NCBI GenBank assembly: GCA_905178155.1
Contig: CAJINV010000010.1
Location: forward strand, 124,001 to 188,000
Source of the DNA: Amoebophrya sp. A120
Lineage: Eukaryota > Protista > Dinoflagellata
Length of the DNA stretch: 64,000 nt
Direction: 5' to 3'
Shown here piece by piece: positions 1 through 61,400 of the stretch. Numbering within the stretch: the stretch's first letter is position 1; each line of letters opens with the position of its first letter. A program made the translations under genes and the position numbers. The notes under the pieces were generated by a model. The model was not told where the DNA came from and did not search any database. It saw nothing but the letters and a program-made list of their open reading frames with translations.

Positions 1-256
1 GGGAAGACAGAGGTCGGCGCCGAAGCCAAGAACGGAAATAGGCGGCGCGGTGAAAAGACACCAACAACATGACGACGAAAGGGCGACCCAGGCGAGGAAG
101 GCGGTGGCGAGGAGGGGAAGACAAAACAAGAGATCGCCCCGAACACCTGCACATTGGATCATTGCCGCGACTACTTAGTCACGACGATCCGACATGGAAG
201 ACGGGGCGATCTATTGAAACCAATCCGCAGGCGCCGACTGCTACAGTCGGCTTCTA

Positions 257-8761: not shown

Positions 8762-11545
8762 TCAGTTTCTCTCCGGTATCGAATGCAAATATGTCTGGGT
8801 GTGGAAGATTGCGAGATTTGTGATGCAATCTTTCCAAGGTCCGCAAACTCTGTAGCGCAGGGCTTAGCATCACAAGTTCTGCAGCCCCTTGGTAATGCCT
8901 GTTCTGCATGAGAAATGCGCTCTCAGGACGGCCAGAAAAAGGCATCTTTTGCAAGTCACGCAAGACAAATTTTTTTGTGAACCGCAACACGCATGACAAG
9001 TTCCGAGTCTTCCAAACCCAGACATATTTGCAATGCATATCCGGATCCTTCGGTCCGAAGATCTTCGGCGCGTGATCGTCGTCATCATGGTCTATCCAGA
9101 CAAGAAAAGGTCGCGATCCATCTTCCCATCCATTTTTTGCATGACAAAGACTGGCTTTGAAGCCTGTTGTTTCGCATGACAAATAACTCGGACAATTCGT
9201 GGCAATCAGGACAGCTGCCACAGTGGTCTTTTCTTGTGGATATTTTCCCCGCCCTGCGTGGTCGTCCGCTGCATGTTGGTCATTTCCAGAGAATTCGTAG
9301 TCGAATCCTTCTCCTCCACAATATCCGACAGGTTGTCTTGCTGTTTCATGTTATTCGCCACGACGACCACGCCCGTCGAAGAAGACGACGACGAAGAAGA
9401 ATTCGTAGTTCCCTGTAGCGGTGGGGGCCCTCCTCCCCCTCCTTCCAGAAGCCCAGCCGGCTGGTGATGTCCTTGCACCACAACACTGATTCCACCAGCA
9501 GCACCTCCGTGATGTCCTTCGCCGGTCGTGCTCATCAATTGAGCTGCACCATGATCTCCTCCGAGGTTGATGCTGTTCCCGGTAGTTGTGTATGAACTGC
9601 AAAAGTATCGTACTAGTAGAAATCGCATGACAAATTTCCTCAGCATGAAAAATAAAATTTGTATATGCTGATTTGCCTTCACAAAGAAATTTGTATTACA
9701 AATTGCATTAAATGCAAGAGGACCTGCATTTATACGAGTACGATACTTTTGCACAGGATATTGTGCAGACCGCGTTGACAAACAAGGCGTCGTCCACCGT
9801 CGGCCTTCCGGTCTCCTGCACTATGGGAGTGTCAGGATTCAGATCGTCAAAGTTGAAACTCAAATAGTTTGCCATGCATAAAATGCAGCCCACAGAGTGC
9901 CTGTCTTGCAGAGTAGGCAAGTGAGGCAGATTGTAAGCCTGTTGGGGGGTAGGCACTGAGCTGCTAAAGTAGCATGACAAAAGGCGCCTTCCTTGTTACC
10001 CAAACAGCATGACAAACCAGATTTCGGCTCTACCCAAATTTGTCATGCGCCAATTGGAAACTGGGTTACAACTTTCATCCATTTTATGCAGTACAAGTTA
10101 TCTCAACTTTCTTGTCGATTTCAATCCTGACACTTCCATATGCACGCCCCCGATCGTACTGCCCCACGTCAAGGAGTTCGCCTTGGACCGCAAAGTCTGA
10201 CTGCTCATCGCGATTAGATGCCCCAGATCCGTGCTCGGCGGGCCCCCGCCCGGGGCGACCACGGAGCCACCACCGGTGTGAGATTCTTCCAGAAAGTTCA
10301 TGCCGTTCTGGTACACATAGGTCGGGGGTGCGAAGTCTCCGTGCGGATGGTGAAGATGATCATGATGTTGCTATGCTGTGTAAAAAAGTCCCCGCCCCAT
10401 AGTCAAGATGGGAAATCTGCAACACAAATCTCCAAGCTTTGGAAGTCCTACATGACAAGTTTCCATCTGCAGCGTAGTGCTGATTAGCAAGGAAAGCCGC
10501 ATGAGGAAGCCATTTGCTCATCCTATTTACAGCATTACAAATACCAAAACACGATTGGAAATGCCTCTTATGGAGATGCGCATTACAAATGTTCCTCTCG
10601 TTGCGCATTTGCATTACAACTCTAGGGTGGGAACGTTTTTACAAATGATAGCTGCTGCGTGTGTCGCCCCGACTGTCTCATGTTGTTCACCGTCATGGAG
10701 CCTGCTCGCGTGCGTCGGACGGTATGGCGTTCTCAACTGTTACACTCTCAACAACTGTTACATGAATTTGTCATCCAGAACTACCATCAAGATCCACACG
10801 AGAAAGCTGGTTCGCATGACAAATTTGCGAAGGGCTAAGCAGCACCTAAATCTGTGCAGAACTTGTAATGCTAGAGGTGCAGCCTCCCCCCTTTCACTTT
10901 TGCAATTCTTGCATCACAAATTCATATAAACAGTTGAGAATGTAGTAACAGCTGAGCACGCCATAGACGGGCTGGCCTCCCTGGTTGGGGCTGCACTTCT
11001 GCATGGCGTCGAAATCGATCGCGTTCACCGGATCAAGTCCGCCTGGGTAGGCAAGCAGCTCGGTGGACCGGGTGCGGGACCGGGACAGTTCACGCGAATT
11101 CTCTTCCTTCTGGTGCTCGTGAAAGGAGAGAAAGGTCTCGCGGTCACGCACGATTTGGTTCTTGTACTTGGGCTTGAAGTAGAATTTGGTATGAAAGTGC
11201 ACAACTCCCCGTCGTCCCCCTCATTTGTATTCCATGAACAGCAATACAAGCGTCAGCAATGACACAGTTTTTGCATGTTGACAAATTTGAACAGGAGTGT
11301 AGTGCTATTTGGGCTGCCAGAACTTGTCATGCAAACAGTGCCAAAAGGCAAAGCAAAGGGTGGACTGGGTATTTTGCATGACAAACGAGGGGGAGGGGGA
11401 GTTGTGCACTGTCATATTTGTACAGCGCGAACCAGAAAGCCTGGGTTTTGTTGTAGTTTGGATTATTTGATGTTATTTTCATTGCATTTATTGCAATATA
11501 AAGCTGCATAACGTTCTTGATCAGAAGCAGCTGCAGCAGCACCAT
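8762..11545 (-). CDS. Hypothetical low-complexity protein, 7 introner-type introns
   Basis: Elements at 11190-11416, 10723-10965, 10372-10650, 9822-10140, 9591-9760, 9093-9242 and 8777-9039. Traced junctions join in frame (e.g. GGQPV|RRTRAG, QQ|HHDHLHH...VYQNG). Start uncertain. Confidence 0.6.
8777..9039. mobile_element. Introner family A (TATnnnTGCAAAnnnGTCTGGGTCTGGAA TIR, ~250-345 bp); representative copy
   Basis: TSD tccgg. Other copies: 13808-15471, 24031-24292, 31669-31933, 34078-34333, 36288-36555, 37176-37520, 41685-41954, 44268-44529, 46698-46962, 47266-47529, 50565-50839, 50950-51202, 54635-54899. Confidence 0.92.
9591..9760. mobile_element. Introner family B (TATnnnTGCAAAAGTATCGTACTnGTA TIR, mostly ~145-175 bp); representative copy
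   Basis: TSD ttgtg. Other copies, in both orientations: 12260-12412, 16706-16855, 23785-23934, 31359-31503, 33813-33973, 36605-36753, 36983-37131, 45502-45664, 47068-47220, 53004-53163, 53413-53614, 54378-54521, 55210-55359, 56101-56274, 58989-59119, 60648-60797. Confidence 0.92.
9822..10140. mobile_element. Introner family C (TATGGAnGnGTCAGG...ATCGTCAAAGTTGAAA TIR, ~310 bp); representative copy
   Basis: TSD tgcac. Other copies: 23007-23319 (gcttg), 37647-37954 (cgact), 40519-40825 (ggcct), 48207-48517 (tgctg), 52074-52387 (ttgtg). Confidence 0.92.
10723..10965. mobile_element. Introner family E (TATGGnnTTCTCAA..GTTACACTCTCA TIR, ~245 bp)
   Basis: TSD gacgg. Second copy at 11897-12144. Confidence 0.85.
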
Positions 11546-11689
11546 CGTGTGTAATTTTATGCAGAATGGAACGGTAGAGCAAGATCATGTAGAAGTGTAA
11601 TCATTTTTGTCTATCGCGGCCCCATGGTGGGTGCCCATCTGCACCTGGCGGCAAATCTTATCTACTAGAATGGTTGAGCGGGGCGATCA

Positions 11690-14600
11690 CTACAATTGCG
11701 AGGACAGAAGTGGAAGTCGACGCTGGCTATTGGCTACATGATCGCCCCACATGACAAAAAATGAACGCCAGGAGAACCAAACAAAAATAGTACTTACCAT
11801 GACGATCCCGCTGAAGCCGGCCCACATGAGGATCCAGAAGGAGCTGTCCTTGGTGCTCATCGGAAACTTGAAGCACGTCGAAACCAACGCCACTGCTATG
11901 GGATTCTCAAGCGTTACACTCTCAGCTGTTTCATGCATTTGTCATGCAGAACTACCTTAACCCGCCAGATAACCAAGCGGCTTCGCATGACAAATTTCCG
12001 AAGTAGGGCTAAATAGAATCTAAAAAATCTCCTGTGCCAGATCTGTGATGCGACAGCTGCAAGTTTGCCCCTTTCACTGTTGCTGGTCTTGCATTTTTGC
12101 AAATTTATGCAACAGTTGAGAGTGTAACGTTTGAGAACTCCATAACCCACACACCCATCATGGGTTCGTGGACGAAGAGTTTAAACGCGACGGCAGAGCC
12201 CGCAGCCGTTTCGGAATGCGGGTCTACCATCTTCAACAGAATCAGCCCGTTTGCCGTCGTATCCTGTGCAAAAGTATCGTGCTCGCAGTTATAATCGCAG
12301 TCATGCATTACAAATCTCCATCCTAACCTAAATCCGCATTACAAATCCGATTTTTCATGCTGAGGGAATTTGTCATGCGATTTATACTAGAACGATGTTA
12401 TTTCATTTCATACGTCGTGCCCATAGAGTGCCCGACCTCGAAAATGGCCCGCTCGAACCACGCGTCGGGCAGCATTTTTGGCGCTATATGAGAGCGCACA
12501 ACTCCCCCTCCCCCTCATTTGTATAGCATGAACGGCAATACAAGCATCAGCAAGAGTGCCGGTTTTGCATGACAGATTTGCACTGGAGTGTAGTGCTATT
12601 TGGGCCACCAGAACTTGTCATGCATAATAGTGACAGGAGGGAAAGCGTGGATTTGGTATTCTGCATGAGAAATGAGAACGAGGGGGAGTTGTGCACCGTC
12701 ATACGCTAGGAAGAGAATGCAGAAGAAGTGCCACGCGAAACCCACAATGTTGAGGATCACGAAGGCGAGGGTCGCGTAGGGCCAGCCGGTGGCGGCTTGC
12801 AGATCCATGGTGCACAGCACGGCCGTAATCAAGTAGTCCAGGGCGATACCGGACACCTGGAAGTCAATTGAAACAGATGTTGACACGTCGTACAACAAGT
12901 TGTGCAAACAGTAACAGCAGCAGAAACGTTACCGAGACCGCTATTTTTCCGGATACAAATTTGCAGTTGTGCGTGAAGGCTACGAAAAATTTGGTCCAGA
13001 ATATTTTTTATCAGTGGAGAACCAGAACTGGGATGCAAAAAACATATTTCATCTTAGCCACCGCATCAAGAAGATGATCTCAATCTCATATTACCCGCTG
13101 CATGCAGTTGTGGTCAATCAGCATGGGATATTACACTGAAAAGTGCCCCCCCATCCCCAAAGGTGCAAAAATTTGTGATGCGAAGTTTCCGAATGAAAAC
13201 TTTTTGTCATGCATGAAAAAAATATGGATCTTTCTGAATGATGCAGATTCTAGTGGTGTTTCGCATCGCTTGCATGACAAGCACCGCTCTTGCTGGGATC
13301 TTTTGCAATACAAATTTTTGTTATTCACGATCGGAAATCTGTGATGCTGATACATGCAAGAGGGCGAGTGTTTCACTTGGAAAGGTTTGCAATACAAATG
13401 CTTTCAAGTTCGGGGGTGGGAGCATTTTTCATTGTAATATGGAATATCCAATCGCTCGGATCAACCGGTCCACCAGAATCCCGCCCACCATACAGAGCGG
13501 AAACAGCGGAAAATTTTCGCCAATGGTGGTCTCGGCTTTCGGGATCCAGCCGACGGTATCGGAGGACAAAAACTCCTGTAGTGCGATCATGCCCTTCTGG
13601 ATTCCGTATCCAAAAGCGCAAGCCAACCCGATCAAAGCCGCGTGGAGCGTCAGTGTGTCAATCGAATCCGATACAACCGTTTCGTACGCCATCGGCTTCC
13701 GAGAATCTTCCGAATACACTCCAACTAGCAGCAACGGATCAGAAGAAGCCGCCCCCTCGATCCCCTGGCCACCTCCTTCCGCCAGGGTTTTGGAAACCCG
13801 CGTGCCGTATGAAGTGCAAATATGTCTGGGTCTGCAATTACTAAGTGGAATTTTGCAGGAAACGGGAAAATTGAAAAAAAATGCCCCCTGTGCTGGATTG
13901 GGCGGTGGCTGCGGCGGTTTGGAGTGGTGAGGGCGCGGCGGCCTTTGTAATCCTCAGTCCTCATCAAAGAACACCAGTACAGGCACGTGGCAGACCTTCA
14001 TCAAAATACATCGCTACAGCTACAAATGAGGGACATGAGGACCATGGCCCATGAGATGAGGGCAGCCTACCTCCAACAGGGGGCGGCTGTGCCAAGCCGA
14101 CGGCGCGCGCCAGACGGGCGTGCTGTGCGGGCAGGGAGAGGACGGCGCCCAAGCGAGCCGAGGCCCTGCCAAATAATTGGGTGGCCCAGCAGCTGACGCG
14201 CCAGACAGACCATATGTTGCCATTAGGACAGTCGCCCCGAACTATTTCCGCACTTTTTGCGCGCGCCGGGGAAAGTGCGAAAAAAATGGCCATCCAGATT
14301 TCCCCCCCCCCGGCGGAGGTGAAACCGCACCTAAATCTCCGAATTGTGGCGCCAGTTTTGGGCGTCCGGAAAAATGCCAAGAAAAGCCCCCAAGGAGAAG
14401 GCCCACCGCGCCTATTTGCAACGTTTGGCCGGCCGAAAAGGCGAAAGCGCGCAACTTTTGCACCAAAAATGATGGCCCGGGGCCACCCGCCGAAGGGGGC
14501 CCCGGGGGGGTCGCCCCCTCATTTTCCTGTGGAATTGAAGCACCGGTGGCACGGCCCCGATTTTGCCCCTCATTTTGGGGCCCCGGATTGGCCCGATTTT

Positions 14601-17600
14601 GGCCTCCCCCGGAGGCCTCCCTCCTGCGTTTTCCTGTGAACTTAAACCGCATGGGTATACAAACTTTTTCCACTCAATCACGAGCGGAATGGCAAAAAAG
14701 GGCACCCGAGTCGAAGCCCCTGGCGATGTCCATGTCCGGACACTCCCGGAGAAGGTAGTCGAGGTGCTTCAGGGTTGCCGGCCTTTTTCGGCCCTGCTCG
14801 CGGAGCCGCGCCCGGGCCGCCCCCTTCCAGCCGACTCAACCAGGGCCATACCAAGGGACGCGGTGAAGGGGCCGGGGAGGTAGTGGCAGCCGCCTACTAT
14901 GTCTGCTCTTTGGGTTTTGTGACTCGCGCAAGGTATTTTTTGAACAGTAACGGAGGTGGGCGCCGGGCTCTGTGACGATTTGCGCCACAGTGTGTGCGTG
15001 TGTGGCGCGGAAAGCCGGACCCCTGTGCGAGGCAGGCTGCTTGCACCTTATGAGCCATCATCTTCATGGGCCTCATTTGTGCCTGTGGAATGTACTATGA
15101 TGAAGGATTCGCTTTGTGCCTGTAGTGATGTTTTTTGATGAAAACAGATTGCAAGAAAGGCCGCCGCGTTGTCCCCGCTCCCAGCCGCTGTCGCCCTCGT
15201 CCTATCCAGCACAGGGGGCATTTTTTTTCAATTTTCCTTTTTCCTGCAAAATTCCACTTAGTAGCAATAAACTTGAGATGCTAGTTCGCGAATCCTGAGG
15301 ACGCCACAAGTGATGGCTTGTTGCTAGGTGTTGCGTATAATGCTGCATGACAAACCGCGTTTCGGCATGACAGAAAAATGGGGCTTTTGGGAATTAACGA
15401 GCATGACAGAATTTGGAGTCATCGACTACTTAGCAGAGCATGACAGACCTTCCTAATTTTTGCAATCCATATGCCCGGTGCGCGCCAGTTCCGGCGAGAT
15501 GCGATGTTGATCAGCATGACGCCCCAAATGGTCGCGCCGAGGAGACCGGTCGTGGCCATACCGATGGAAACGTCAAAACCGTCTTTCCATTCTTGCATCT
15601 TCGGAAAGTCATCACGGAGCCCAGCAACCTAGAATTTGATAAAAGTTTGTGTCTGTGTTGACCCATATCAATGTAAGTAATCGACAGGTAGGAGGTAGGA
15701 GGAGTAGCAGGAGTAGAGACGAGAACAAGAAGACAGATGTGGCTGTGCTGGACGAGCCATGAGAAGTTTATAGTTTGCAAATAAACAGTAACAGTTACAG
15801 TAACAGAACTACAGCAAGTCACAACCGCAAGTCGTGCACCGGAGTTGGAATCAAACTAAAAGGTCAAAAATTCTATATACCGTTCCATGACCACCCTCAA
15901 AGCCGAGATACATGGAGATCCCGTAGCAATGCGGTAACCAGTCCGCAGATTTTCCGTGCGGTAATTTTCCGTCTTCCGTGTTCCAGGCTTGGTTCCCGGT
16001 CCAGAAGTAGCCCCACTCGTTGGCTTCGAAGAACCTTTTTGATACGATAATCACAATTACAATAGACAAAGGTGTCGTACGATAGCAGTGAAAAGAACTT
16101 TGCGTATGCAGCACAAATAAGAACTAGAACATGCAACATCTTCAGAAAGACCACAACATCAGGCTGAAAATGAATGAAAATGAATCATGAGTATCTTCTA
16201 TCAATACAGAAACAATGCTCCAAACACCCAGCCCGCTAACAGTCCGAACATCCACAGGCCATGCGTGACCACCTGCCCGTACATAATCTGCGGTCCGGAA
16301 CCTTCCCAGATCGCTTTCACAGGGGGGATATGCAATACAAATTTCCCGCACGACACGTACAAAATGCAAGACAAATTTGGCCGAGTTCTTAGAGCATGCG
16401 GTTTGTCATGCTGAATAGGATTGGCGAAGAGTTTTGTCATGCAGAGACGGCAGTTCCAGTTGTGCGTCGTGTACGGGAAATTCACTGTGGATACGGGATA
16501 TGCAATACAAATTTCCCGCGCATGTACAACATGCATCACAAATCTATTCACCAATTTGAACCGCAAAACTTGTCATGCAAGACTAGGATCGAAGTCAAGT
16601 TTTGTCATGCAGAGACCACATGTGTACATGTACGGGAAATTCACTGTGGATACGGGACCTCGACCCCAATAAACACCGCGGCAAAAATCACCGAGATCAG
16701 AACCTTATCCTCTGCAAAAGTATCGTACTCGTAGTAATCGCAGTCATGCATTACAAATCTCCAAACCAAGGTAAAACAGCATGACAAATTTCATTTGTCA
16801 TGCTGGCCGAATTTGTAATGCGATTTCTACTAGTACGATACTTTTGCAGTGCATAAACCTCCGGGAGTTGCGGTCCCTTATCACGAGAAAAAAGTGATAC
16901 AGTTACAGATTTGTTGGAGTTTCTGCATCGGAAATTTTTTCTGTGTGGCAGAGAAAACTTGTAATGCGCAGATCATATTAAGGGAAAACAGGAAGGAAAC
17001 GAGGCTCCCAAGCATTTCCTGCATGAGAGAGGTTGTCTGTGGTGCCTGTCTTGCAACACAATGTGTAACTGTAACACTTTTTTCTTGCGATATCCCCACC
17101 CGATGGTGTAGTAGGCAGAGAAGTAGCTGTAGACCTTCCTGATTCCGGGCAGACACTCCCCCCGTTGCCCAACCGGAACGGTCGGGTCCGTGTTGGAGTA
17201 ACGATTAATGTGGTCCTCGGGGACACGCTATGCAATACAAATTTTCCGTACATCAACATGTACAAGATACATCACAAATCTTGCCAATTTGGAGGGTAAA
17301 ACTTGTCATGCTAAACTAGAATCGAAGCCAAGTTTTGTCATGCAGAGACTGCATTTGTACGTGTACGGGACCGCATTTGTACGTGTACGGGAAAGTTACT
17401 GTGGATACACACCCATGCGGCCCGACGTTGTTCGCGAGGAGCAGGATGAGGTAACTGATAGATGATGTAGATGTAGTGTGTTTAGCATGACAAATTGCAA
17501 CAAGAATACAGCCACATGCATGACAACTCACTTTGGAATAAAAATCTTTATACCCAAAAGTCCCGCCGACGACCGAACTCGGCAAGTACAGGTCCCGCAG

Positions 17601-20454
17601 CGGCTTGATCAGAACCCGCAACACCTTGCCGCAGAGGAGTAACAGAGATAAAAACGCGAAGGAAGAAATCGGTGCGTTTTTCAGATCCAAAGAGGGACCA
17701 GAGGAACCCATCTCGTCTTGGGATGTGTCGGTGGAAGAGTCTTCTTGTATCCACAAAAAACAACGAACCATCCCCATCCATTTTCTGCATGACAAATACT
17801 GAATTTCATGCTTGTTTTGCATGACAAATTAAATGGGGATGGTTGTTTGTTTGTGGATATCTTGTCCTGTCGCCGCGTTACTAAACGCTGGACTCGTACT
17901 CCCACCGATCGCCAGATTGGCCGTTGCGGGGGTGGCGGCGGGACGTCGCACATCAGGTGGAGAAGTAGATGCCTCTCCTGCTCCAAGAACTTCTTCCGTC
18001 TGGCTCTGTTTCGTTTCCAACGCAACATCCCGGGAGGTTGCTCCTGCTGTCGCACCTGGTGTGCTATAATCTTCCCCAGCACTGGTGCTCTCGGTCTGTG
18101 TCATCTTCTCATTCTGGCCACTGATCAGTTTGGGTTCGATTTTCTGATCCGGGTTGTGTGCCACTTGCACACCAGAACCTTCGGAGAATTCATGCTCGTC
18201 ATCCGGGCCGCTGCCATCCGTGATCACCTGATAGGACTCGCCTGCTGCTGCAGGTCCTGCAAAAGAACCACCTCCAGCCGGCGCCGTCGCGGTCAAGTCC
18301 ACTGCTGTCGGGGTGTACACGAACGCATCGTCCGGCTGTTTTTTATCATGCGGAGTTGTGACTATTACGGCTGGCGCAGTGGCGGTAAGATCGACGATGT
18401 GCGGCTGCGGGTGTTGCTTTATCCAGCAAAAAAAACCCATCCCAACCCATTTTTTGCATGACAAACACGAGGGCTTTATGCAAGTTAATGTTTTGCATGA
18501 CATCAAATTGGATGGAGGTGGGTGTTTTTTCATGCTGCATATGCTCAACAGGGATGGTATTTCCGAGCATCGCGTTGTAGGAAGGAAGTTCCTGCGGTAC
18601 TGAATTTTGTTCCTGCGGTCCTGAATTCAGCACCGCCGGTGCTGAATTCGCCAAGTTTGGGAGTTGTTCTAAAACATTCTGCCCACCAGCACCTTCGATC
18701 TGCTGCGAAGAAGTGGCAGCTTCGCCGAGTTTCACAGCCGGAAGAGAGTTCGTGATGAAAGCTGAATTCGGCTGTGGTGCTGGCGGTAGTAGATGCGGTT
18801 GCTCTGCCTGGTTTTCGTTTTGATGCACATCTACCGCTGCGTTCGATTGCAACACTGCCGGCGCGGTGTCGTAGAGCGGCGAAGCAGCTGGCGGCGCGGG
18901 GGGATCGATGGTGTTGATATCGTTATCAGTCGTTTCTTGCATCACAGCAGGAGCCGTGGAGGATAGATGCTGCTGCACGTTGACATGCTCGGGCTGCTCT
19001 ACGTGTGCCTGTGGCTGCGGGAGGTGCGGTTCTACTTGCACTACCGGTTGTACTGGTACCGTCTGCAGCAAGGGTTTCTTCTCCTTTGTAGAACCTTCTC
19101 CGGTGGTCGCGGCTCCGCCAGACAAAAAAATCGCAGGGGAAGAGGAAGATAAGGCCTGTTGCTGCACCCCTGCCCCCAAGCTACCGCTGCCCTCCTCGCC
19201 TGGCTTTGTCGCGTGAAAATTCGCTGGTAGGGAGGAGGACAAGAATTGTTGCTGGGCTGGAGTCGTCGGTGGTTGATGCACACTAGCACCAGCAGTGACC
19301 GTGGGCAACATAGCGTCCGGCAGCTGGGCCACCATTGACGCTGCTGGCACCTGCACCGCACTTGGTGCGGAAGCGGCCAACTGCGCGCCAATGTTTTGCA
19401 CCTCACTGGCAGTAAGAAGTTTGTTTTCCTCGTGTAATTGGGAGAGTTCCGGCGCAGAGAGGGCGAGGTCTGGATTGATGACGCCGTCACCAACATAATC
19501 TGCTGCACTCTGCTGGGGTGCTGCTGCGGCTGCGGCAGTGGTTTGATGAGACATGGCAGCCGGGTCTGTAGCTTGCGTTGAAATTGTTGTTGCAACACCA
19601 GCAGCAGCTGCCGCGCTACCACTGTTCTGTTCCGGAGTTATCTGCACCACACTGGGTGCCGTAGCAGCCAAATTGAAGTTCACGTCGCCCGGGCCCAACA
19701 GCGTTGGCTCGTGCAAGTCCGGCGCCGACATTGCGAGATCTGGGTGCAGAATTTGTTCTCCTGTAGTCGATGCGGACACCAGTCTGAAATCCGCCGTGTT
19801 CGCCATAAAAGTTTTCATCGTGTGGATATTAACATTGTTCGTGACCGCCTTGCAAAAAAAGGACAATCCGCCAACCCCCAGTCCGGAGAATCTGGGCCGC
19901 AGGGGGCGTCTGTTTGTAGCTTTACTCTGCGTTGGTTTCTTGGAAGCCGTGGTCGGCTTAGAAGTACCATTCGTTTGATTTTGATTGTCGTTCTGTGAAG
20001 CCACGACAGTGGCGGCCGGGGAGGTGGACTTCTTCTTCTTCTTTATCTTTTCTGATTCATTATGATCTACTCGCTCCTTCACATCATGTTGATCTTCGCT
20101 GGCAATATCGCACAAATGCCGCTTGCTTGTGGAGGATCGTTGCATGGTTCTCCTCGGTGCAGCTCTTGTAGGAGTTCCTCCTGGCGCGACAGAACGAGGG
20201 GGCTCAGCAGTTCGCCGCAAACCTCGCGCAGGCAGCTGCACACTAGCAGGAATGATAACGCCTGCTCCTGCAGTAGGCGATGAAGAGGAAGAAACTCTGG
20301 TTGAAATGCGCTCGTTTTGTTGGTTCCGTGGGGTAAAGCCGATCCGTCTGGGTCTGCTCAAAGGCGTCTGAGTTGCAGCTGCTACCTCCACGGGCTCGAT
20401 CGTCGCCAGCGGCAAGAGAGACGCCGCGCTTTTGTTTTCTAGATTTGATGACAT
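11690..20454 (-). CDS. Sodium/glutamate symporter (GltS/ESS family) with ~850-aa low-complexity N-terminal extension; at least 14 introns
   Basis: Exon peptides LYLPSSVVGG, GPQIMYGQ, GFEGGHGT, SIGMATTGL, SIDTLTLHAALIG, FPLFPLCMVGG, VSGIALDYLI and TTANGLILLKMVDP match GltS-family motifs. N-terminal exons join in frame across 18420-18541 and 17748-17859. Confidence 0.85.
12487..12703. mobile_element. Introner family F (TATGAnAGTGCACAACTCCCC TIR, mostly ~200-235 bp); representative copy
   Basis: TSD cgcta. Other copies: 11190-11416, 21901-22122 (aggat), 38409-38711 (cgttt), 40237-40439, 51522-51743, 56338-56573. Confidence 0.92.
13129..13439. mobile_element. Introner family H (TATTACAnTGAAAAnTGCCCCC TIR, ~310 bp)
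   Basis: TSD tggga/tggaa. Opposite-orientation copy at 22325-22634. Confidence 0.85.
13839..15263. mobile_element. 1425-bp TIR element (TAC...GTA ends, 5-bp TSD) nested in an introner
   Basis: ~60-bp TIR TACTAAGTGGAATTTTGCAGGAAA...CCCCCTGTGCTGGAT. TSD gcaat at 13834-13838 and 15264-15268. Lies inside the family-A copy 13808-15471. Confidence 0.9.
15629..15880 (-). other. Canonical GT-AG intron in the GltS-like gene
   Basis: acg|GTATAT...TTCTAG|gtt joins GGHGT to VAGLRDDF in frame. No TIR seen. Confidence 0.75.
17748..17859. mobile_element. Introner family D (TATCCAnAAAAAA..CCATCCC TIR, ~110-150 bp); representative copy
   Basis: TSD tcttg. Other copies: 18420-18541, 28020-28129 (tccgt), 9093-9242. 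Confidence 0.88.
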
Positions 20455-21572
20455 CTTCGATAAAGTTAAAGCTTTAGAATAATTATAATTCGGTATCAAT
20501 GTAGTTTTGAACAAGTACGATAGCAAGATCTTTATTCTTGGAATTCGTCGACGACCCTGTCGTCTGCAACAAGTGGCGTGCCCTATTGTCGTTTTTGATG
20601 ATTTTCACGAGCCTAGAGGAAATTATAATCACCTCCAAGTAGAGCGCGCGTTTCTTCAAAAATTCTCGTGGACGATGAAAGCAAGGTGCTTACCAATGAT
20701 ATGGCCGCGCGCTGCAAGAAAGGCGGCGCACTCCGTCCTTCTACTTGTCGACGGTGAACAAGCCAAAGACAAGCCATAACGTGAACCTCCGAACGAAACA
20801 CAATGAAAAAGATCTTTGTTCCGTAAAAAAGACCGAATGAACAGGCTAGGGGTCATACACTTCGACGTCATGACGGAAAAGAAAATGCGCTGATCTTGAA
20901 GATCTTCCTGATCTTTTTCGGGCCGTCCGTGTTGAAGTTGATCACGATCGTCGTCCTTGGGGCAGAAAGTACAGCAGGGAAACTTGTGTGTGTAGCATCG
21001 ACGATTAGAGCTGAATGATTGAAGATTTACTTTCCTCGCTTTTTGTTCTAGGCTACATTTACAAGTGCGAAGCGCTTCTTCAGCCAGAGCGATTGTTACA
21101 GCACTATGAGGTTGTACTTGGCTGCGGGTACTACGGCACTAACGTTATTCCAGGAGGAACACAAGTGCTGGATGAGCTACAACTTCCGTTGCTTTTCATG
21201 TGCTGGTATTTTGCTCCGCAGCAAATGGGTCCAGTCTCTTGCTGTGGTGTACAGGATATGAAAATGCATCCAAATTACGATCTACAGTTGACAGAAGTTT
21301 TTGTCCAGATTTGGTCAATACCGCTGGCAGCAGTCTTCTTCTAACCTCCCCTAACAACACAGAATATACAAGAAAAACCTGCGTGACGGGTATCATATTC
21401 AAAAAGAGTGTTGCACGATGAAGCAACAATAGAGACAATAAACATAAAGTGAAAACGATTTTTGAAGAACGCGTGTAAGACTGTTCGTGATCGTGACGTA
21501 GCTGTCTATTGTAACAGTATCATGGATGTAAGTAATTGGGTCCCACCTTGACAACTATGGGGTGAGGACGTT

Positions 21573-30982: not shown

Positions 30983-31198
30983 TACAACATTCTCCAGTGC
31001 CTAAACGTGGCCAATTGTCTAGTAAGTCATCTTGCACTTGTTAACTGAGTCAAAACGAAACCAACGCATAAATTTCAAGTCAAATTTTCAAACTGAATTG
31101 CACAACAAAATTGGTACTAGTATCGCACAGGCGATTGCGATTCATTGGAATTTGCTTTTCGTTGCTGTGATGAAGAAGATAGTAAATTTACTTCATCT

Positions 31199-43939: not shown

Positions 43940-44529
43940 CGTCGACAAAATGTGCGCGTTCGCCGAAACAACACTAGAAGGTGACTTTCTCGCCCGTGAT
44001 ATTTGATCCCGACGAGTGCCAATGCATTTTGTTACATTTTACAACAACAAAAAATGCCTACATAAACATCTGTGGCATGATGTACAATAGCGCTTCATGA
44101 TTCCATTTTCATCGTGTTGTAGCGCTGGCGCTAGTGATTTGAAAACGCCCTCCTTTCATCTTCATTCACCTTAAACGCGATGTTAGTAGAGGAGCAGAGC
44201 TAGCGCGGATTGCAATCATGATGTCACGACAACGAATCAAGTCGTCCCAGCACGACGACCACGACCCTATCAAATGTAAAAATGTCTGGGTCTGGAAGAA
44301 TGGAAGGCTTGTCATGCTTGTCTGGCATGACCCATGATGCTTGTAATGCATGACCCAGCATCACAGATTTTTGGAAAGCTTCCTGATGCCATTTCCGCAT
44401 GACAAATGCCCTCCTCGCGTAGCACAAATGTGGCTCCTCTTGCTGGTCATGCAATACAGATTTTTTTAGACTCCAAAGTTAGCATCACAAGTTCCAACTT
44501 TCCAGACCCAGACATTTTTACATTTGATA

Positions 44530-50473: not shown

Positions 50474-53400
50474 TCACATTAAGTTGTCAAACAGCAAGCT
50501 TCTGTGATCCTTCTTGACGGTGGTCTGTTTCCGCTCGGAGGAACGGTCGCTGCTGCTTGCCGAGTATGCATTGCAAATATGGCTGGGTCTGGAACTCTGC
50601 AACTTGTCATGCTAAATCTGGACCAGGCAAAAATCTGCGTTGCATGGTTACCAAATGCTGTCCACTTTTGATCAAGTTGACGACAGGCAGTTTCTCATGC
50701 AGGCTGGGCTTGATAGTCATTGCACTGAGTCTGTCATGCTAGCAGGTCCTCCATTGCAGATCATATGGGTCATGGAAACCCTGCATGACAAGTTTAGCAA
50801 TCCTTCAGTCAGACCCAGATATATTATTTCCATTTGATACCGAGTCGTCATCCGGGTCTGCCCGCTTGGAGGTCATGCTCTTCCCCGACGCTCCGCTCTT
50901 CATCGACGCTCCGCTGAGGACCGAGATGTTCTTGCTTTTCCGCATGCTGTATCAATTGCAAGAGTGTCTGGGTCTGGAAGAATGCGCGATTTGTCATGCT
51001 TGTCTGGCATGACCAAAAAGTTTGTGATGCGTGTCCAAGAAGAGACGCCTTTGCGTGTCATGTAAAAACGCAGTTTGTCATGCGACAAACGCAACACAAC
51101 GAAGCGCAGACATTTCTCATGCTTGGCTGTGCATTACAGAGCGTTCACTACTCCCACCGCAGCGTTACAAGTTTCCAGACCCAGACATTTTTACAATCCA
51201 TATGCTCTGATTCCCCGCAGCATCCGGGCTCAGTTGCTCCATCTCCTCTTTTGGTGCTTTCGGGTATCCGAAGGAAAAGATTTACCATTTTGTTCATGCG
51301 CCATTCAAATTTCAGCATGACAAAACTTTCTCACAACTCCAGCAAATCTAATGTTCATCTGCACGCCAAATGGCATCCTCCGATGGATTTCAAAAAAATT
51401 CTTTTGATGCATTTGTACGGTAGATCGTGTACGGTAAATGTTTCTTGCATATCAGCACCGACTGAAGCGTGGAGTTCATCCCCCCGTCTCCCCCTCCAGC
51501 AGCGATGTCTTTCTTGCCCTGTATGAGAGTGCACAACTCCCCATCCTCCTCCTTTGTGTAGCATGAACGACAATACAAGCGTCAGCAAGAATACCGGTTT
51601 CGCATGGCAAATTTTCCCAGGAGTGTAGTATTTGTATTGCTTGGGCTTCTGGTGTTTGTCATGCAAGCAGCGCCAAGAGGCACAGCCTGGATTTGGTATT
51701 CTGCATGACAAATGAGGGGGAGGGGGAGTTGTGCAGTGTCATACTCTGCGTGGTTTTCCCGGAAAGAAAATTCCTGCCATCACCCGATGACTGGACCCAG
51801 TCCCCTGGCTCTTGAATGCTCGGGTACTTCTCACGCCCCGACACCCCCGCCGCTTGCGTCGTGCCACGCGCCGAAGCGTTGGGAACTGCGACAGACGGTG
51901 TGGGCACAGCCATGCCGCGCTGAACCGCGACAGGGCTCACCGCGAGCGGGTTGCTGTCGGAAGCATCCTCGTCCTTCGACGACTTCTCGCTCTTCTTCGT
52001 TTTCGGATTAGGAATTCTCGCTCCCGCGGAGGATGCTGGTAATCCGGCCTGGGTAGAATTCCCGGCGGTTGTGTATGAAAGCCTCAGGTTGAAAATCCTC
52101 AAAATGGAAATTATAATTTGTGATGCAAAAAAACGACTCCACTTGAAGCGGCATTTGTAGTCGGCGCATGACCACAAATTTCCCTGGCACTTAAAGCATG
52201 TCTGTCATGCAGGTTAAGGCAAAGGGGTGCCCTTCTGTCGTGCTAAGCAGCACTCCAATTCTTCAACCCTAGCAGGACAATAGTCGCCTCCTTTGCGTCC
52301 TGTGCAATACAGTCTTTTTTGCGTCGCATTTCATGCATCACAAATCATTTCCACTTTGATGAGGATTTCCATTCTGAGGCTTTCATATTGTGTCATCCAA
52401 GCGGAGGTAGGGTGTGGTGGAGTTGTCCCTAGTTTGTGATGCAAAAATGCAAAAGCATCGCACTAGCACTACTATCTAAATTGCATTTTACAAACTCTTA
52501 TTTCACGGGAAGACGTAGAAATGGGACTTTTCTCTAATGCAGCTGAATCGCCTAAGAAACCAGATTTGTTCATATTGTGCATGCAGTATTGAAATCACTA
52601 CGAGTCAGTGCGATCTTTATCATTTCCAATTGATATCATCTGTTGCTCGGAGGCATTTCTTGTAGTTCCATCCCCGCGAGAGGGCAACGAACTGGCCCCA
52701 CCAATCGTCTGCGAAGGATCGGAGCGCCCCGACGCGTCGGATTTTTGCCGGCCCGTCTGGCGCGGGAACAGGCCAGAGGGTACTGGCGGGACGGTGGACA
52801 TGTTGTTTATCCCGCCGCCCACACTTGCGGTGCTCGCCCCGGAGTGATCGCGGCGCGAGGACTTCTCTTTCCGGCTCTTCTTCTCTTTTATTTCCACCTT
52901 TTCTCCCTTCTGCTCCGGCGGCGTGGTGTTACCACCAACATGCCGTTTCTCCAACGACGTCGGGTGCAGGTGGATATCCTTGTAGTGCTCGATGTGGCCC
53001 TCGTATCCACTGGAGAAGTATCGTACTGATAGTAGTTGCAGCTACCGTGCATGACAAATGTTTTCTTTTTAGGTAAAATAGCATTACAAATTGCATTTTT
53101 CTTCTTGAAAAAATTTGTGATGCAATGTATACTAGTACGTGTACGACACTTTTGCAATGCATACATCGGCATCCGGGACGATGCCGCTGGGTACCGCCGG
53201 AACCGAGGGATCCGCCGCGGAGGAGTGGGCGCCGACCTCGCCCGCAGCGGGCTTGCCGTCGGGGAACAAGCCGGAGGGAAGTCCTGGCATGGATGACGCA
53301 TCCAGCGTGCCCTTTTTCTGGAGCGACTGGTCGTTGGAGGACTGTTTCACTCCCGTTGGCTGTACGGTCACTCGGGACGCGTCAATCCCGGAGCCCAGCG

Positions 53401-56400
53401 ACTGATTGCCTGTATGCATTGCAAAAGTATCTTCGTGTTCGTGTGGTGTACGAATTGCATGACAATTGCTTTTACTCCATAGGAAAGGTGAGGTGCAGAT
53501 CTGTGAGGTTTTTTTAGGTCAGGAAAAAGAATGCAAAACTGTAGTCATGTACTACGATGGCCATTCTAATAAATATACGCCGGCGCGAAGGACATCACTT
53601 TTACAAATGTCATAGCTTCCTTTCTTGGACAAAATCCTGTCGCCCAGCGCAATAGCCTCATCCCCCTGTTCGGGTGCGGGAGCGGGAGTTGTGGCCGCGT
53701 CTCCGACCTCTTCTGCCTCGTGTTCCTCCTGGTGGGCTGCAAAATCGGCCTTCGCGCGCATGAGTCCCATCCCGGCGTCGACGGTAAAATGCTCTTTCTT
53801 CCCGAACTTGACGCCCACCTTCTTCACGTGCAGATTCAAGTTCAGGTTTTCCTTCGTCACTTCGGGGATGTGCTTCTTGTGCATTTTGTGATTCATGTTC
53901 GCAGTTTCCTGCGCCATCAGCATGGTCGACGCGGGCGCGACAAAATCCTTCCACTTCTTGCCGCGCTTCTTCCCCTCCTCGGTGGCAAAGATGCCCGAGG
54001 GAAGCGCCGTCGCCGCGTCGATATCCACCGCGCCGCGCTGCTGGCCAGGCTTGATCTTTTTGCTTTTTTTCCCGTCCTTCGGCTCTTCTTCTCCGGGCTG
54101 GACCGGAGGAAGAATTCCCACGGGCGGAATCTTCCTGGTTTCCTCCGTATGCAATACAAATTTCCCGGACATGTGCAAAATGCATCACAAATCTCACCAA
54201 TTTGGAGTGTAACACTTGTCATGCTAAACTAGGACCGAAGCTCAATTTTGTCATGGAGAGACTGCATTTGTAGTTGTACGTGTAGGGGAAATCTACTGTG
54301 GATACTCCGTAATCTCCTTCACCATCTCCAAATCCTTGGGGCTCGCCAGCTGCTGAAAGTCCGCATCTTCGATGAGCTATCCTGTGCAAAAGTATCGTAC
54401 TCGTATTGCAGTCATGCATTACAAATCATCTTGTTAAGGCAAATTAGCATTACAAATTTCATTTCTCATGCTGAGGAAATTTGTAATGCATTTATACGAG
54501 TACGATACTTTGCAATGCATATAAACGCCTCCATCCCGTGCCCGTGCGCGCCGCCCTTCATGCCCTTCCGGTGCTTTTTGCGCTCCTGCTTGTACTTCTT
54601 CCGCCGTTCCTCCAGGGTTAGCGTCTTATCTTCATATCAACTGCAAAAGTGTCTGGGTCTGGAAGGATGCGAACTTGTGATGCTGCATTTGGATGCTACA
54701 AAAATCTGTATAATTGCATGAACAGCAAAAGCGGTACATTTTTTGCCACGAAGAGAGGGCTTTTGCTTTTCTCAATGAGCGGCATAGGCATTAGAAAGCC
54801 CTCACAAAATCTGTGATGCTAGGGCATCCATCACAGACGTCAGGACTCATGCAAAATGTGCATCACACATTCCAGACCCAAACATTTTTGCATTTGATAC
54901 TTCATCCGTCAGCGCCATTGTGGCCCGCTCGTCATCGTCATCCAGGTCGTCGACCAACCTTTCCGCCAGAAACTCCGCCGCTTGCGGCGAGAACCCGTGT
55001 TGTTGGAGAGCTTGCTCCGTCTCCTTCTGTTGTTTTTGCCGTTCGGCCAAATTCATCAAAAACTCGCGCATGCGTCCCACGTACTCCGGCCCGTCATCCC
55101 AGCTCAACCCAAACTGCATCAGGACTTTCTCGTCCCCATCGCCACTGGGACGCAGTAAAAACTCTCCGTCATGCACGTACTTGTCGCAGATTTGGTTCGC
55201 GCACATTTTTATGCAATGCAAAAGCATCGTACTAGTATAAATGCATTACAAATTGACTTAGCATTACAAATTAAATTAAATTTGTAATGCGGATTGGCCT
55301 TCAGAAAAGGATTTGTAATGCATGATTGCAATATGAGTACGATACTTTTGCAGTGCATAGTTTTCGCGTAGCCGCCCGAGACACCGGCGTCAATCAGCGC
55401 GTTCTCGACCACAGTGGGATCCAAATTCACCTCGATAGACTTGCGGGCCGGGTGCTCCGAGATGAAGTGCTTCTCGTCGAAACTCAAAGCGTCCCCCTTC
55501 GCGTTGGGCGCCCCGTGGGGGTCTGCCTCCGTTTCGGTGCCGGTCGTGTCGCCCCCGGGCGTTTTTTTCTTCGCTTTCAACTTCTTCTTCGCCTTCTTCT
55601 TCGGCTGCTCGACCGGCGGCGGAGGGGGCTGCTGCACCACGACGGGCGGGTGGTAGGGCACGGGCTTCTTCTCCTCGTCGGCCGAAGAAGAAGTGTAGAT
55701 GAACCAGAAAAGCAGGCCCAGCCCGATAAGGCCGAGGATCGAGCCCGCGACAATGGCGATGATCTTACCGCACCCGAGGCCCTGCTGAGCTCCACCGGAA
55801 ACGAGGACGTTTTCATTTGTCACGGTGGTTGTCATTTGGTCTGCCTCCGTGAGCATTTGGTGATTTGGGTCATCTGCAGCGTACGTGGAATAGGCCGGTC
55901 CACCCTGATGCGGAGTCGGGGGTGTATATTCCTGAACAAGTGGCACAGTACCCACGAGTGTGGCCGACTTCTCCTGCTTCTTCTGCAGCACATCCATTTC
56001 CACAAAGGCCGACGTGCTCGCCGTGGCCGTGGAGAACTCCGGATCGAGAAAAAAGTGCGACGAGGCTTTTTTCTTCAACATCTTCGCTTCTTCCTCCTGT
56101 TATGCATTGCAAAAGTATTGTAAGTACTAGTGGAAATTGCATATACACGACATCATCAACTGGTGGAAATAAAACCGAAATACCACTTTTCACAAGCACA
56201 TTAAAAAACCAGATATAGTGATGCATGTATAATTTGCAATCAGGAGTACAAGGACAATACTTTTGCAGTGCATCCCTGTTCGCCATCCTCATCTCCACTC
56301 GGCTCTTTGACCGCGCCAGTGACCGCTCCGGCGATGTTATGAGAGTGCGCAAGAACTATACCTCCTCGTTCCCTCATTCGGGATGCAAATTGCTGAAGCT

Positions 56401-57282
56401 AGTTCGTGCTGGCCTTTGGAGGTACCGTTTGCATGACAAATTTCTGAAGTACTTTAACCAGTCCGGCACTGTGTCATCTATTACCGTGCTTCCTTTCTTG
56501 CTGCTCATGCCCTTGTTACAAACTCAAACGAGGGAAGTTGTACCAGATATACTCATTCTTGTGCACTCTCATACAAGTCGAGGACGTATTGAAACATCCA
56601 CGCAGGCTATCCAAGAAAAAAACACCATCACAACCACATTTAGAAGGTTACGCATCAGAAATTTCTCTCGCATGACAATTTTTTCTTGTATTGCAAAAAC
56701 ACAAAGGGAAAAAATCGCCAATAACTCTTGACTGTGATGCATTTTTGCGCATGACAAAAGTTTTTGTATTGCAAAAATGTGCAAAAGTGATTGTGATGGT
56801 GTTTTTTTCCTGAATACAGGCTCGTCCCCGTTTCGCCGCTCCATGAACTTCTTGGTTTTGCTCTGCCCATTCTGTAGGGTAGAGGAGCTGAAGGGGAAGA
56901 CGGAAGTGGCTACTCCGGCGTGCTGCGAATTTTGTTCAACATCCGGCTTGCTAGACTCCGCTTCTGCTACTTCTGTGTTTTCATTTTGCTTTTGGCCGAG
57001 GACTTGTTGTTCCTTGTTCTCTGCTGTAGTACTCTCATCGTCGACCTTCAACGCCCGATCTGCCTGCAATTGTTCAGCATTTTCTGCACGCCCATCCGAC
57101 GCCTCTATGTGCATGCGCGGCTTCAGGGCAGAAACTTGTTGGAAGGTGTCCGTAGTTGTACCCAGAAGTAGGGTTATGAACTGCAGTACTGCAAGGCGCT
57201 TGGTCGCCGTTGAACCAATCCTCGCCGTGGCGAGAGGTCCTCGTAACGCACGGGCGCTCATTAGGATCTTGCTCTGCTCCAT
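50474..57282 (-). CDS. QSDR-family membrane protein with long cytoplasmic tail; ~15 introns
   Basis: LQADR, QNGQSKTKKFMERRNGDEP|AWMFQYVLD|xAG, TM IIAIVAGSILGLIGLGLLFWFIY. Not every junction traced, so it could be two genes. Confidence 0.65.
54148..54304. mobile_element. Introner family I (TATGCAATACAAATTTCCCG...GGGAAAnnnACTGTGGATA, ~150-245 bp); representative copy
   Basis: TSD ctccg. Other copies: 16329-16493, 16499-16652, 17229-17407, 25439-25653, 31966-32149, 32234-32479, 36794-36946, 59217-59437, and reversed at 51265-51451. Confidence 0.9.
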
Positions 57283-58402: not shown

Positions 58403-61400
58403 CTAGTCGCGCGCCGTGGGCGAGTTGTTTCTCGAGGCGGCTTTGGCGGTTGTTACGACTGCAGCGAAGCTCATGATGCTATCCTCCGGTGCGTTCTTGA
58501 TGACTCGCTTGGCCGCTGCCGCAAACTTTGCCTTCCCCTTCGGTTTCGCCTTTTTACTTCCCCCGGCGTCGCTGTCCACCGATTTCGGAGTGCTGTTCGA
58601 TTTTGGTGTGCTGTTCGATTTCGGCTGTGCCGCTGGGGATTTGCTTTTCGAAATGATCGCGCTTTTCAGACCCGCCTTGTACACTGCTGCATACTCCTGA
58701 AAACTTGTGTTCGATTGTCTACTAGTTCGACTGTTGATGTTACTGGAGGCATTGCTCGCGTTACTCTCGAGGACTTTATTTCGGCTGTTACTGGTAGTGC
58801 TGTCGTTGGACTGGGGCTTCAGAAAAGACGGGCGATCGCGAAAACCGGTCAGGTCGCCGGTCACGCCAACGGGCAGGTCGTTGGAATCTACTCCGGGCGA
58901 CTTCATGGTGGTGGTCACTTCCGGTGGTCCGCCGGTTTTTTCAGGGTGGTCATCAAAGCCGCGGTTGAAAATGCTGGACTTCTTACACTATACAGTGCAA
59001 AAGTATCGTGCTACTATAAATTGCATTACAAATTTCCTCAGCGTCAGCATTAAGTAATGCGGATTTACCTCGGGAGCATGACTGCAATTACAACGAGTAC
59101 GATACTTTTGCACAGGATACACTCCTGCTTTTCAACTGCACCTCTTGTACTTGTTGATCAACAACTTCTGGCGCCCCGCCGGCACTCGCTAGTGATGCTT
59201 TGGCGCTTTTCATTCATATGCAATAGAAATTTATTTTCCCGCACAGGAGGAGGTACAAACGCAGGTACAAACTTTGCGAAGGAGAAGCAGATGAACCTGA
59301 ACAAGCATGAAACTTGTGAAGATGTCGAATCGATGTGCTTGCAGCTGCGGAAAAGTTTTATCGTAAAAAAATGCAGTGTCAGCATCGGATGTGCTTCTTG
59401 TACGTCGTGTACGGAACTAAGTTTAGTTATGTGGATACACGACCGACTGCTCCCCGATCGGTTCATTGGCTGAGTGCTCGAGCTCGCGGCTTTGTCATAT
59501 CGCGGGGAAAAAAACGTGTTGACGTTCAGACACAGGAGAGAAAGGGCCGCATAGATGCATATGCATTGCATGCATGATACAGAAAATCTGTCATGCAGGA
59601 CAGCACCAGAAAGTGCCAGTTGTAGTACTAGCCCTCAAACATTTACATTAACGTTAACAACTACAACACTTCTTTTTTTCTGTGATATGCCAAAGCTTTC
59701 CGCCAAGATCGCAGCCTTCGCTTGCGGATTAGCCTTCAGGATGTTTTTCGCCGCAGTGACAAATTTTGGACCCTTGACTTCGTATGCATGGCAAAGTTGT
59801 ATTGTCCCAGCATGACAAGCGTAAATTATCGCAGTTAGAAAACTACAATTGTCAACATGCAGCAGGTAGTAAAGCAAGAACGAAGTCTGATGTCATGCAG
59901 GAGCAGGACGTCAGCAATTCACTTTACAGGAGTTTGCGATACAATTACAACTTTTGCAGATCATACTCCTGCCTTGGCCTTCTTTTTTGGCTTCTTGCCT
60001 TGTCCGAAGGCATCCTCGTCAGCAAAGGTGTGAATCAAATCTGCACCGGGGCCAGGTTTGCGGGGTGCGCGCTGCCAAACTTTCATATCGACAGTATGCA
60101 ATCGTTACGGGTTCTTGTACCGCACGTGTTGTACAAATAAATGGTGCACCAGGGACTTGAACTTGTCATGCAAGATGAAAAATGCAATGACATTTGTACA
60201 CACAACATGATACAAAAACTTGATTATTTCCTGTTCATAAACATCTCCTTTGCCCCCGTACATCAGATCACCCTCGAAGCCGTCCGTGCTGGGCACGATC
60301 CCGGGACCGGTCGTGGAGCCCATGACCCCGCCTGATCCAAGGAGGGCGGAGTCCATCTCGCCTGCGGCTGCCGCGGTGTCGTAATCTCTATGCAGGAAAA
60401 AAAGATTGTAGGCGTAACTTTCTTGGAGGATTAGCATGACAAATATTTCTCGCATGACAGCAAAGACCTGTCATGCGCAGATAGTAGCGGAAAACGCCGC
60501 TGAATGGACCCGACAGCGCAGGCACAGCATGACAGGCGCAATCAATTTGCATGCTGCGCATCACAAATTTACACTAACGCTCTTTTTTCCTTGGATAATC
60601 CCCAGTGGACCCGCAGTACCCCATGTACACCATACTCGCGATGACACTATCCTGTGCAAAAGTATCGTACTCGTACTAATTGCAAGTCTTGCATTACAAA
60701 TCTCTTTCTTGAGGCAAATCCGCATTACAAATTTTATTTCTCATGCTGAGGAAATTTGTGATGCATTTATACGAGTACGATACTTTTGCAGTTCATACAC
60801 ACCCCCGACGACCAAAACGACACAGATCGCCGTGACGGTAACGCAGCAACCGCCACAGCAGTTCTCCTCCGCACTGGTGATAGTGGTCGTTTCTTCCACG
60901 GTATTTTGCGTTGAAACGGTGGTCCCCGGGCCTGGTGCTGCTGCACCTCCTGCTTGGACAGGTGGCGATTGTGGGGCTGCTGGTGCTGCAGGAGGTGCTC
61001 CCCCTCCTGCTGGTTTCCTCGGTGCTGCTGGCTGCTTCCTATTTATCACTAGCGCTTGCTGCGCTATTTTTTGTGTCTCCAGAAATGTCGCCGACGCCGT
61101 TGCGGTTGTTTTTTTGACAACATCTTGCTGGTCCCCTGCTGCAGACGTACTGCTGTCCGAGAAAAGAAAGTCGCTGTCAGTGATCGAGTTTGTCGTTTCC
61201 CCGGCGCCGTCGGTGTCGCTAGTTGTAAACAATGCGCCGCCGCTGATCAAGTTCTCCGTGACTGAACCGGCAAAGTCCAATACGTATTGAAACATCCACG
61301 CTGGTTCGTCATTCTTCCGTCGCTCCATGAACTTCTTTGTCTTGTTCTGCCCGTTCAGCATGGCGCTGAAAGAGGAGGAAAGCTGGTCCAGGCTGGGGTC

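Follow-up and report, generated by a model that had tools for sequence, protein, structure and literature searches.

We analyzed a stretch of 64,000 nucleotides (hereafter called the window) from contig CAJINV010000010.1 of the dinoflagellate Amoebophrya sp. A120, in which short elements of the form TAT...ATA, with terminal inverted repeats (TIR) and flanking target site duplications (TSD) of 5 bp, interrupt the coding sequence of one gene after another. Candidates were located by searching for TAT...ATA pairs accompanied by direct repeats and by means of a library of terminal 18-mers. Curation left 74 elements spread over 8777-60797 (median length 216 bp), plus about four decayed copies, in agreement with the original prediction of some 70 to 75 elements made from the bare sequence. 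Nineteen of them lie in gene 1 (8762..20454, minus strand), which encodes a protein of 1712 residues related to ESS-family Na+/glutamate symporters, the name being taken from its relative P0004. In this gene the elements are removed at the RNA level, and a single cut register fits every junction that could be checked in the window.

Exact TAT and ATA ends are present in 68 of the 74 elements, and the two TSD copies agree at all five positions in 34 elements, at four in 28, at three in eight and at two or fewer in four. Mean identity of the flanks reaches 0.85 at 5 bp as compared with 0.23-0.30 at 2-4 and 6-9 bp, in a list that is partly TSD-selected; the combination of a perfect TSD with a TIR matching at 12 or more of 20 positions was found 28 times in the window and 0-1 times per simulation in 30 Markov simulations. 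We also examined 163 loci outside the window (L001-L163), which were collected by scanning for one TIR pattern and apparently derive from one assembly with the same families. Detection blind to the TSD recovered 350 copies in these loci, of which 254 have a perfect TSD of 5 bp, two one of 4 bp and none one of 6-9 bp, while a perfect 6-bp repeat flanks one of the 74 window elements and none of the 350 outside copies. (Two outside elements, L007:2123-2341 and L044:8386-8713, carry an extra TTA or TAA between the left TSD copy and the TAT end, possibly a footprint.) The TIR pattern had no matches in viral contigs, and an Rfam search likewise returned none.

Of the window copies, 59 fall into 10 multi-copy families and the other 15 are singletons. 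The number of families is close to the ten or so initially proposed; the TIRs, then regarded as unrelated, share TAT followed by a degenerate 10-mer. Orientation independence within same-strand genes was borne out, as six of the 10 multi-copy families occur both ways in minus-strand genes, and outside the window the largest families are split 59:39, 15:7, 7:3 and 5:3 among the 185 copies, of 318 examined, for which the gene strand could be called. Deletion of an element together with 5 bp leaves 73 of the 74 sites within a long open reading frame (ORF), the exception being 36288, which lies just beyond a stop codon, and the rejoined motifs RREN|DEPASMFQY and GQ|EDSST that had been given as examples of restored frame were reproduced. 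If retained, only three of the 74 elements would combine a length of 3n with a stop-free frame. GT-AG borders, which define U2 spliceosomal introns, are possible in any of six registers for only three of the 72 elements considered in the window and for 13 of the 185 outside copies with an assigned strand, upholding the claim that the boundaries offer no consistent GT/AG.

These elements are the A120 introner elements described by Farhat et al. (2021; PMC7789003), because the genes of the window match A120 gene models and the published inverted repeat (IR) agrees with the terminal matrix of the 148 window termini. One exon of the window matches the A120 protein P0001 at 100% identity, the spliced model of gene 1 equals P0001 over 1712/1712 residues, and five window genes in all correspond to A120 gene models at 100%. 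According to the text of Farhat et al. (2021), the A120 IR is made up of TAT, then seven variable bases, then three or more A, with direct repeats of 3-5 nt at the boundary, a range that includes the 5 bp found here and is narrowed to 5 bp for A120 in the legend of their figure S19. The same text reports 29,850 repeated introns that are supported by RNA-seq and occupy 17% of the assembly, gives a mean length of about 240 nt for non-canonical introns and leaves the removal mechanism open. Genome, IR, direct repeat, spliced non-canonical borders and repeated copies thus coincide, and the system was already known. The original prediction had cited Amoebophrya as an analogue, whereas the window belongs to that very genome and its elements are the published ones; other Amoebophrya strains are described as having canonical introns (PMC12005148, as far as its text was available). 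Farhat et al. (2021) term the splice positions variable or unknown, and the written parts of their paper that were consulted (text, legends, tables) contain no fixed register, orientation counts or inner motif arrays of the kind reported here. We did not find these three features in the searchable literature, although they may be present in figures S19-S25 of that paper or in articles behind subscription.

Within gene 1, elements 1-10 occupy positions 8777-9039, 9093-9242, 9591-9760, 9822-10140, 10372-10650, 10723-10965, 11190-11416, 11897-12144, 12260-12412 and 12487-12703, and elements 11-19 positions 13129-13439, 13808-15471, 16329-16493, 16499-16652, 16706-16855, 16879-17092, 17229-17407, 17748-17859 and 18420-18541. 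The pair 16329-16493 and 16499-16652 belongs to one family and stands in tandem around a common 5-bp TSD; judged by length, both are lost jointly from the mRNA. The gene also contains five GT-AG introns (11441-11797, 12857-13094, 15629-15880, 16035-16207 and 17455-17553), which were fitted to the length of the RNA contig first and confirmed afterwards by identity with the annotated P0001. The last of these begins G-TAT and contains two internal motifs of the type described below, so that it probably represents a decayed element which has become a canonical intron. Nested within element 13808-15471 is a TAC...GTA element of 1425 bp (13839..15263) with TIRs of 244 bp and a 5-bp TSD, GCAAT; this nested element is GC-rich, low-copy and without internal motif, its three ORFs have no Pfam match, and the outside loci contain nothing that matches it.

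Sequencing runs were compared with the stretch 8000-27900 and provide junctions for gene 1 only. No run containing the stretch is recorded as RNA, and the assignment of X3-X6 to RNA is provisional; X3 and X4, from one sample, are presumed to be RNA-like on account of their splicing pattern, and X1 to be DNA-like. X3 and X4 behave as mRNA, since neither the nested 1.4-kb element (zero depth across 13976-15303) nor the greater part of the adjoining DNA is covered by them. Their contigs show no differences to the exons and skip the elements, the RNA-like record being contiguous at 17742|17860 and 18414|18542. Subtraction of the 19 elements and the five GT-AG introns from gene 1 predicts 6002 nt, which is the length of the record (6002 nt); all listed RNA-like pieces of the gene fall at the record positions predicted by the model, and three short gaps of 47, 56 and 67 letters equal predicted exons without fitting. 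The RNA-like contigs skip all 19 elements of gene 1, rather than retaining them as would be expected of a pseudogene. The DNA-like contigs of X1 span the elements at 9093, 16329 and 18420 at a depth of 43-46, like unique sequence. (The raw-read run X9 yielded five partial reads and was uninformative.) Since the element-free contigs also lack the five GT-AG introns, and the DNA-like contigs retain the elements, removal in gene 1 takes place at the RNA level.

Of the two routes initially envisaged, removal in RNA thus stands for gene 1, whereas precise DNA excision from a somatic or stage-specific genome, comparable to that of the internal eliminated sequences (IES) of ciliates, appears highly improbable. 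Symmetric ends and exact loss of the TSD would suit a transposase-type reaction, and rare DNA junctions would be invisible in assembled contigs; X1 is possibly the source of the assembly itself, and contigs conceal rare variants, so a minor level of excision could escape. However, the element-free contigs cover only the expressed gene, the same polarity of the cut fits the minus-strand transcripts checked, and the text of Farhat et al. (2021) presents the introns as validated by RNA-seq. Ciliate-type IES are absent from the transcribed DNA genome, whereas the elements studied here are present in DNA-like contigs at full, single-copy depth.

The position of the cut was deduced from sites at which the two TSD copies differ, where the product reveals which copy was kept, a single register being tested for all elements. 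Cutting after TSD position 4 is the only register that rebuilds all four informative proteins, P0001, P0005, P0006 and P0007, with 0 mismatches, a test covering 42 elements. P0005 is the most discriminating, with 8, 6, 5 and 2 mismatches for positions 0-3, none for position 4 (1199/1199 residues) and 2 for position 5, with the junctions of 56101 and of the decayed copy at 52431-52636 additionally placed by hand; P0001 requires position 4 or 5, P0006 accepts 2-4 and P0007 any. Sites 55210, 56338 and 37176 rule out position 5, and sites 9093, 51522 and 53004 any position below 4. The RNA contigs concur with this register at 9093 and 10372, and the residue F retained at 56338 matches a D-F motif of four paralogues. 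A120 gene models were derived from BLAT-aligned transcripts. The intron, as shown by fit, therefore reads N-TAT...ATA-NNNN in the transcript direction, the cuts falling 1 nt upstream and 4 nt downstream of the stem. In this -1/+4 register the 5' dinucleotides are GT in 26 cases, AT in 22, CT in 15, TT in nine and GG in one (n = 73), and all nine of the nine predominant A120 boundary classes in Table S4 of Farhat et al. (2021) begin N-T, as the register predicts. An attempt to locate the cut by AT-ward mutation bias was uninformative.

The remaining elements were assigned to genes by reconstructed frame or annotated protein; all but three are in minus-strand genes. Gene 2, which is not covered by long RNA-like contigs, carries six placed by frame restoration only, at 21901-22122, 22325-22634, 23007-23319, 23785-23934, 24031-24292 and 24442-24615. 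(In run X9, the TIR end 24263-24292 occurs in a few raw RNA reads, followed by unlike sequence, which hints at the same family in another sample.) Frame restoration also places 28020-28129 in gene 3 and 31359-31503, 31669-31933, 31966-32149, 32234-32479, 32538-32763, 33182-33503, 33813-33973 and 34078-34333 in gene 4. The elements of gene 5, from which P0006 was rebuilt over 381/381 residues, are 36288-36555 (just beyond the stop), 36605-36753, 36794-36946, 36983-37131, 37176-37520, 37647-37954 and 38409-38711, and those of gene 6, from which P0007 was rebuilt over 426/426, are 40237-40439, 40519-40825, 41462-41638 and 41685-41954. Three elements (44268-44529, 44592-44913 and 45502-45664) interrupt a plus-strand ORF for which the frame is restored and neither RNA nor annotation was seen. 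The first of them is the sole element with an apparent 6-bp duplication (CGACCC), and removal of 6 nt would open an earlier ATG start than removal of 5 nt; it is also located where a 58-bp segment, which recurs at 45719-45776, comes to an end.

Gene 8 contains 46698-46962, 47068-47220, 47266-47529, 47594-47833 and 48207-48517, placed by frame restoration in two pieces, with a decayed copy at about 47900-48110. Gene 9 (50565..56816), which is based on the rebuilt P0005, holds elements 1-7 at 50565-50839, 50950-51202, 51265-51451, 51522-51743, 52074-52387, 53004-53163 and 53413-53614 and elements 8-14 at 54148-54304, 54378-54521, 54635-54899, 55210-55359, 56101-56274, 56338-56573 and 56608-56816, besides the decayed copy at 52431-52636. 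Over element 56101-56274, whose transcript-5' end is GAT, the annotation places a GT-AG intron (56097..56260; annotation only, n = 1) that takes a new GT from within the TIR and keeps its AG at +4 as usual; together with the intron 17455-17553 of gene 1, this suggests that elements can pass into canonical introns. Gene 10 carries 58989-59119, 59217-59437, 59498-59687, 59783-59965, 60095-60239, 60389-60597 and 60648-60797, again by frame restoration. Between 31300 and 61920 the minus strand carries a tandem cluster of paralogous, lineage-specific membrane proteins with a motif resembling QNGQ...KKF(L/M)xRR...(W/S)MFQ(Y/L)xLDF; among six homologue matches, none outside A120 covers this motif.

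Upstream of gene 1 lies a degenerate Copia-type long terminal repeat (LTR) retrotransposon (1391-6664, plus strand), with an RVT_2 match at 3867-5069 (E 3.6e-25) and, read by eye, gag-, integrase- and RNase H-like sequences in other frames. An element of 777 bp with CAG...CTG ends and an 8-bp duplication (7/8 identical), which we take to be hAT-like, is inserted in its reverse transcriptase region (4841-5617), and a long inverted repeat (88 bp, 93%) flanks a GC-rich spacer just downstream (6913-7407).

The interior of the elements carries arrays of the motif GCAWKRCAAA, which has 249 matches in 16,045 bp of elements as against 14 in 47,218 bp outside them, an enrichment of about 50-fold; the element termini themselves consist of TAT followed by a looser copy of this motif. 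It is present on both strands in 48 of the 74 elements and on one strand only in 22, and has no interior match in the remaining four. Copies in the same orientation are spaced by 31-33 bp in 284 of 605 pairs, related copies not being independent, and this spacing recurs, as read by eye, in seven of the eight largest family maps. Such phasing by three helical turns suggests a DNA-binding array, for instance transposase sites. A terminal stem was predicted on both strands in 23 of 25 folded elements (median z -6.2 for the sense and -5.6 for the antisense strand), the exceptions being 12260 and 45502.

One may then consider that a protein binding the GCAWKRCAAA arrays, either in DNA during transcription or in RNA, recruits the splicing machine, and that the hairpin is incidental. 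The enrichment just described would fit, as would the stronger conservation of motif columns relative to other interior columns (0.86 vs 0.76, a comparison that is partly circular), the splicing of 12260 with its weak stem, and the fact that the sole TA..TA element without the motif lies within an intron (n = 1). Yet the spacing of 31-33 bp would suit binding of a transposase to DNA, the elements with no interior motif (4/74) or with motifs on one strand only (22/74) do not fit, and the cut tracks the terminal TAT and ATA rather than the inner arrays. We consider this explanation unlikely.

The transcript 5' and 3' ends are statistically identical, consistent with the symmetric removal signal foreseen in the original prediction, although the cut itself is asymmetric with respect to the stem. 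Combining these properties, we favour, at about even confidence, a modified, relaxed spliceosome working without U1 that reads the paired element ends. In this scheme, a Ginger/IS3EU-like transposase of the integrase type, acting in trans and with the phased GCAWKRCAAA arrays as its probable binding sites on DNA, would insert the elements with a stagger of 5 bp. In the pre-mRNA the TIRs are predicted to pair in either orientation, juxtaposing UAU and AUA, and removal of N-TAT...ATA-NNNN, the step shown by fit, takes away 1+4 TSD bases and restores the empty site exactly. U at +2, A at +3 and U at +4 would be the sole invariant bases near the 5' junction, forming a GU-like site with free +1, and the 3' site would be placed by its distance from the stem, not by AG. 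A spliceosome is favoured because U+2 is invariant in this register, because the text of Farhat et al. (2021) reports a nearly complete A120 spliceosome (83/89 proteins and U2, U4, U5 and U6 detected, U1 not detected), because one junction, that of 56101, mixes both rules, and because there is a precedent in Fritillaria borealis. According to the available text of PMC11282704, this species has non-canonical introns derived from miniature transposons (MITE) with TIR and TSD that are removed by an adapted U2 spliceosome; there AG-AC and AG-AT borders are preferred, with an upstream TAC, whereas only +2 to +4 are fixed here.

The same -1/+4 register could also be produced by a structure-specific endonuclease and an RNA ligase that dock on the TIR stem or on motif duplexes, independently of the spliceosome. 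Statistically identical ends, irrelevance of orientation and dispensability of GT and AG would follow naturally, and the failure of Farhat et al. (2021), in the text consulted, to detect U1 agrees with it. A parallel exists in the nonconventional introns of euglenids, which share with our elements the TIR stem, TSD-like repeats, non-GT-AG borders and junctions offset unevenly from the stem, and which are excised as circles without lariats (PMC11282704, from the text available); they differ in having CAG/CTG ends and other offsets (+4..6 and -8..-6), and the circles have been shown there. A splicer that reads transposon ends as structure and acts independently of the spliceosome, its -1/+4 cut undoing exactly any insertion of this superfamily with a 5-bp TSD in either orientation and any sequence context, is accordingly a tentative proposal. 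What makes the nuclease and ligase less probable than the relaxed spliceosome, though a serious possibility, is that U+2 is retained at the junction, that the A120 spliceosome is nearly complete and that the annotation gives element 56101 a canonical GT while leaving its 3' position unchanged; moreover, no candidate enzyme was identified, and a literature search for one gave nothing relevant.

The preferred reading, that of a relaxed spliceosome acting in a fixed register, has several observations to contend with. Lack of asymmetry between 5' and 3' ends (among 259, TATG is 5'-only in 47 and 3'-only in 58) is odd for a spliceosome, and no AG enrichment was found. The stems show no excess of G-U over A-C pairs (166:150) and hence no sign of selection for RNA pairing, while 12260 is spliced despite a predicted terminal stem of only 4-5 bp (z -1.5). 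A tendency of the intronic TSD copy to drift towards GT/AG was considered and rejected, given that the 15:5 ratio in the window (p = 0.02, one of six registers tried) became 7:7 outside and was not replicated. Frame restoration is the sole basis for 31 of the 74 elements, and the annotated P0009 of gene 8 terminates at element 48207-48517, giving no support there. The register depends on about seven informative sites, mostly from annotation and each mostly a one-sided bound, and variation from site to site is possible, in line with the term variable applied to the A120 sites in the text of Farhat et al. (2021). Finally, Pfam searches revealed no transposase, either among the 139 ORFs with a minimum length of 220 aa that were taken from 577 kb of outside loci, some of them overlapping, or among the ORFs of the nested element.

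The mobiliser is nevertheless probably a DDE transposase of the integrase type, similar to Ginger. To our knowledge, the end and TSD rules of hAT, Tc1/mariner, PIF and Transib do not match the elements. No transposase is reported for A120 in the text of Farhat et al. (2021), and in the accessible part of Gozashti et al. (2025; PMC12130899) A120 family 38 is classified as Ginger, with '5-bp TSD, TA/TA Termini' and integrase-like homology. Compared by description only, this family has the same TA..TA ends and 5-bp TSD as the window copies, which are short and non-coding; the same catalogue, which comprises 58 A120 families, lists A120 TIR families with large TIRs of 149-305 bp and mixed splice sites. 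IS3EU/GingerRoot elements, as described in the text seen of PMC10045372, combine TA..TA termini with an integrase-like DDE transposase; they share these ends with our elements, but their TSD is usually 6 bp instead of 5 bp, and we do not claim membership.

What is added to the published description of the elements is that a single -1/+4 register replaces 'no clear splicing signature' by a rule, namely U at +2 and a 3' site at fixed distance from the stem. Assays for lariats or circles thereby gain exact junctions, and the outcome for a mutated TAT or a TSD of 6 bp becomes predictable. A precise machine that erases insertions would account for the tolerance of about 30,000 copies in coding sequence, amounting to 17% of the assembly according to the text of Farhat et al. 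(2021), and a structure-guided splicer independent of flanking sequence would, if true, be of general interest.

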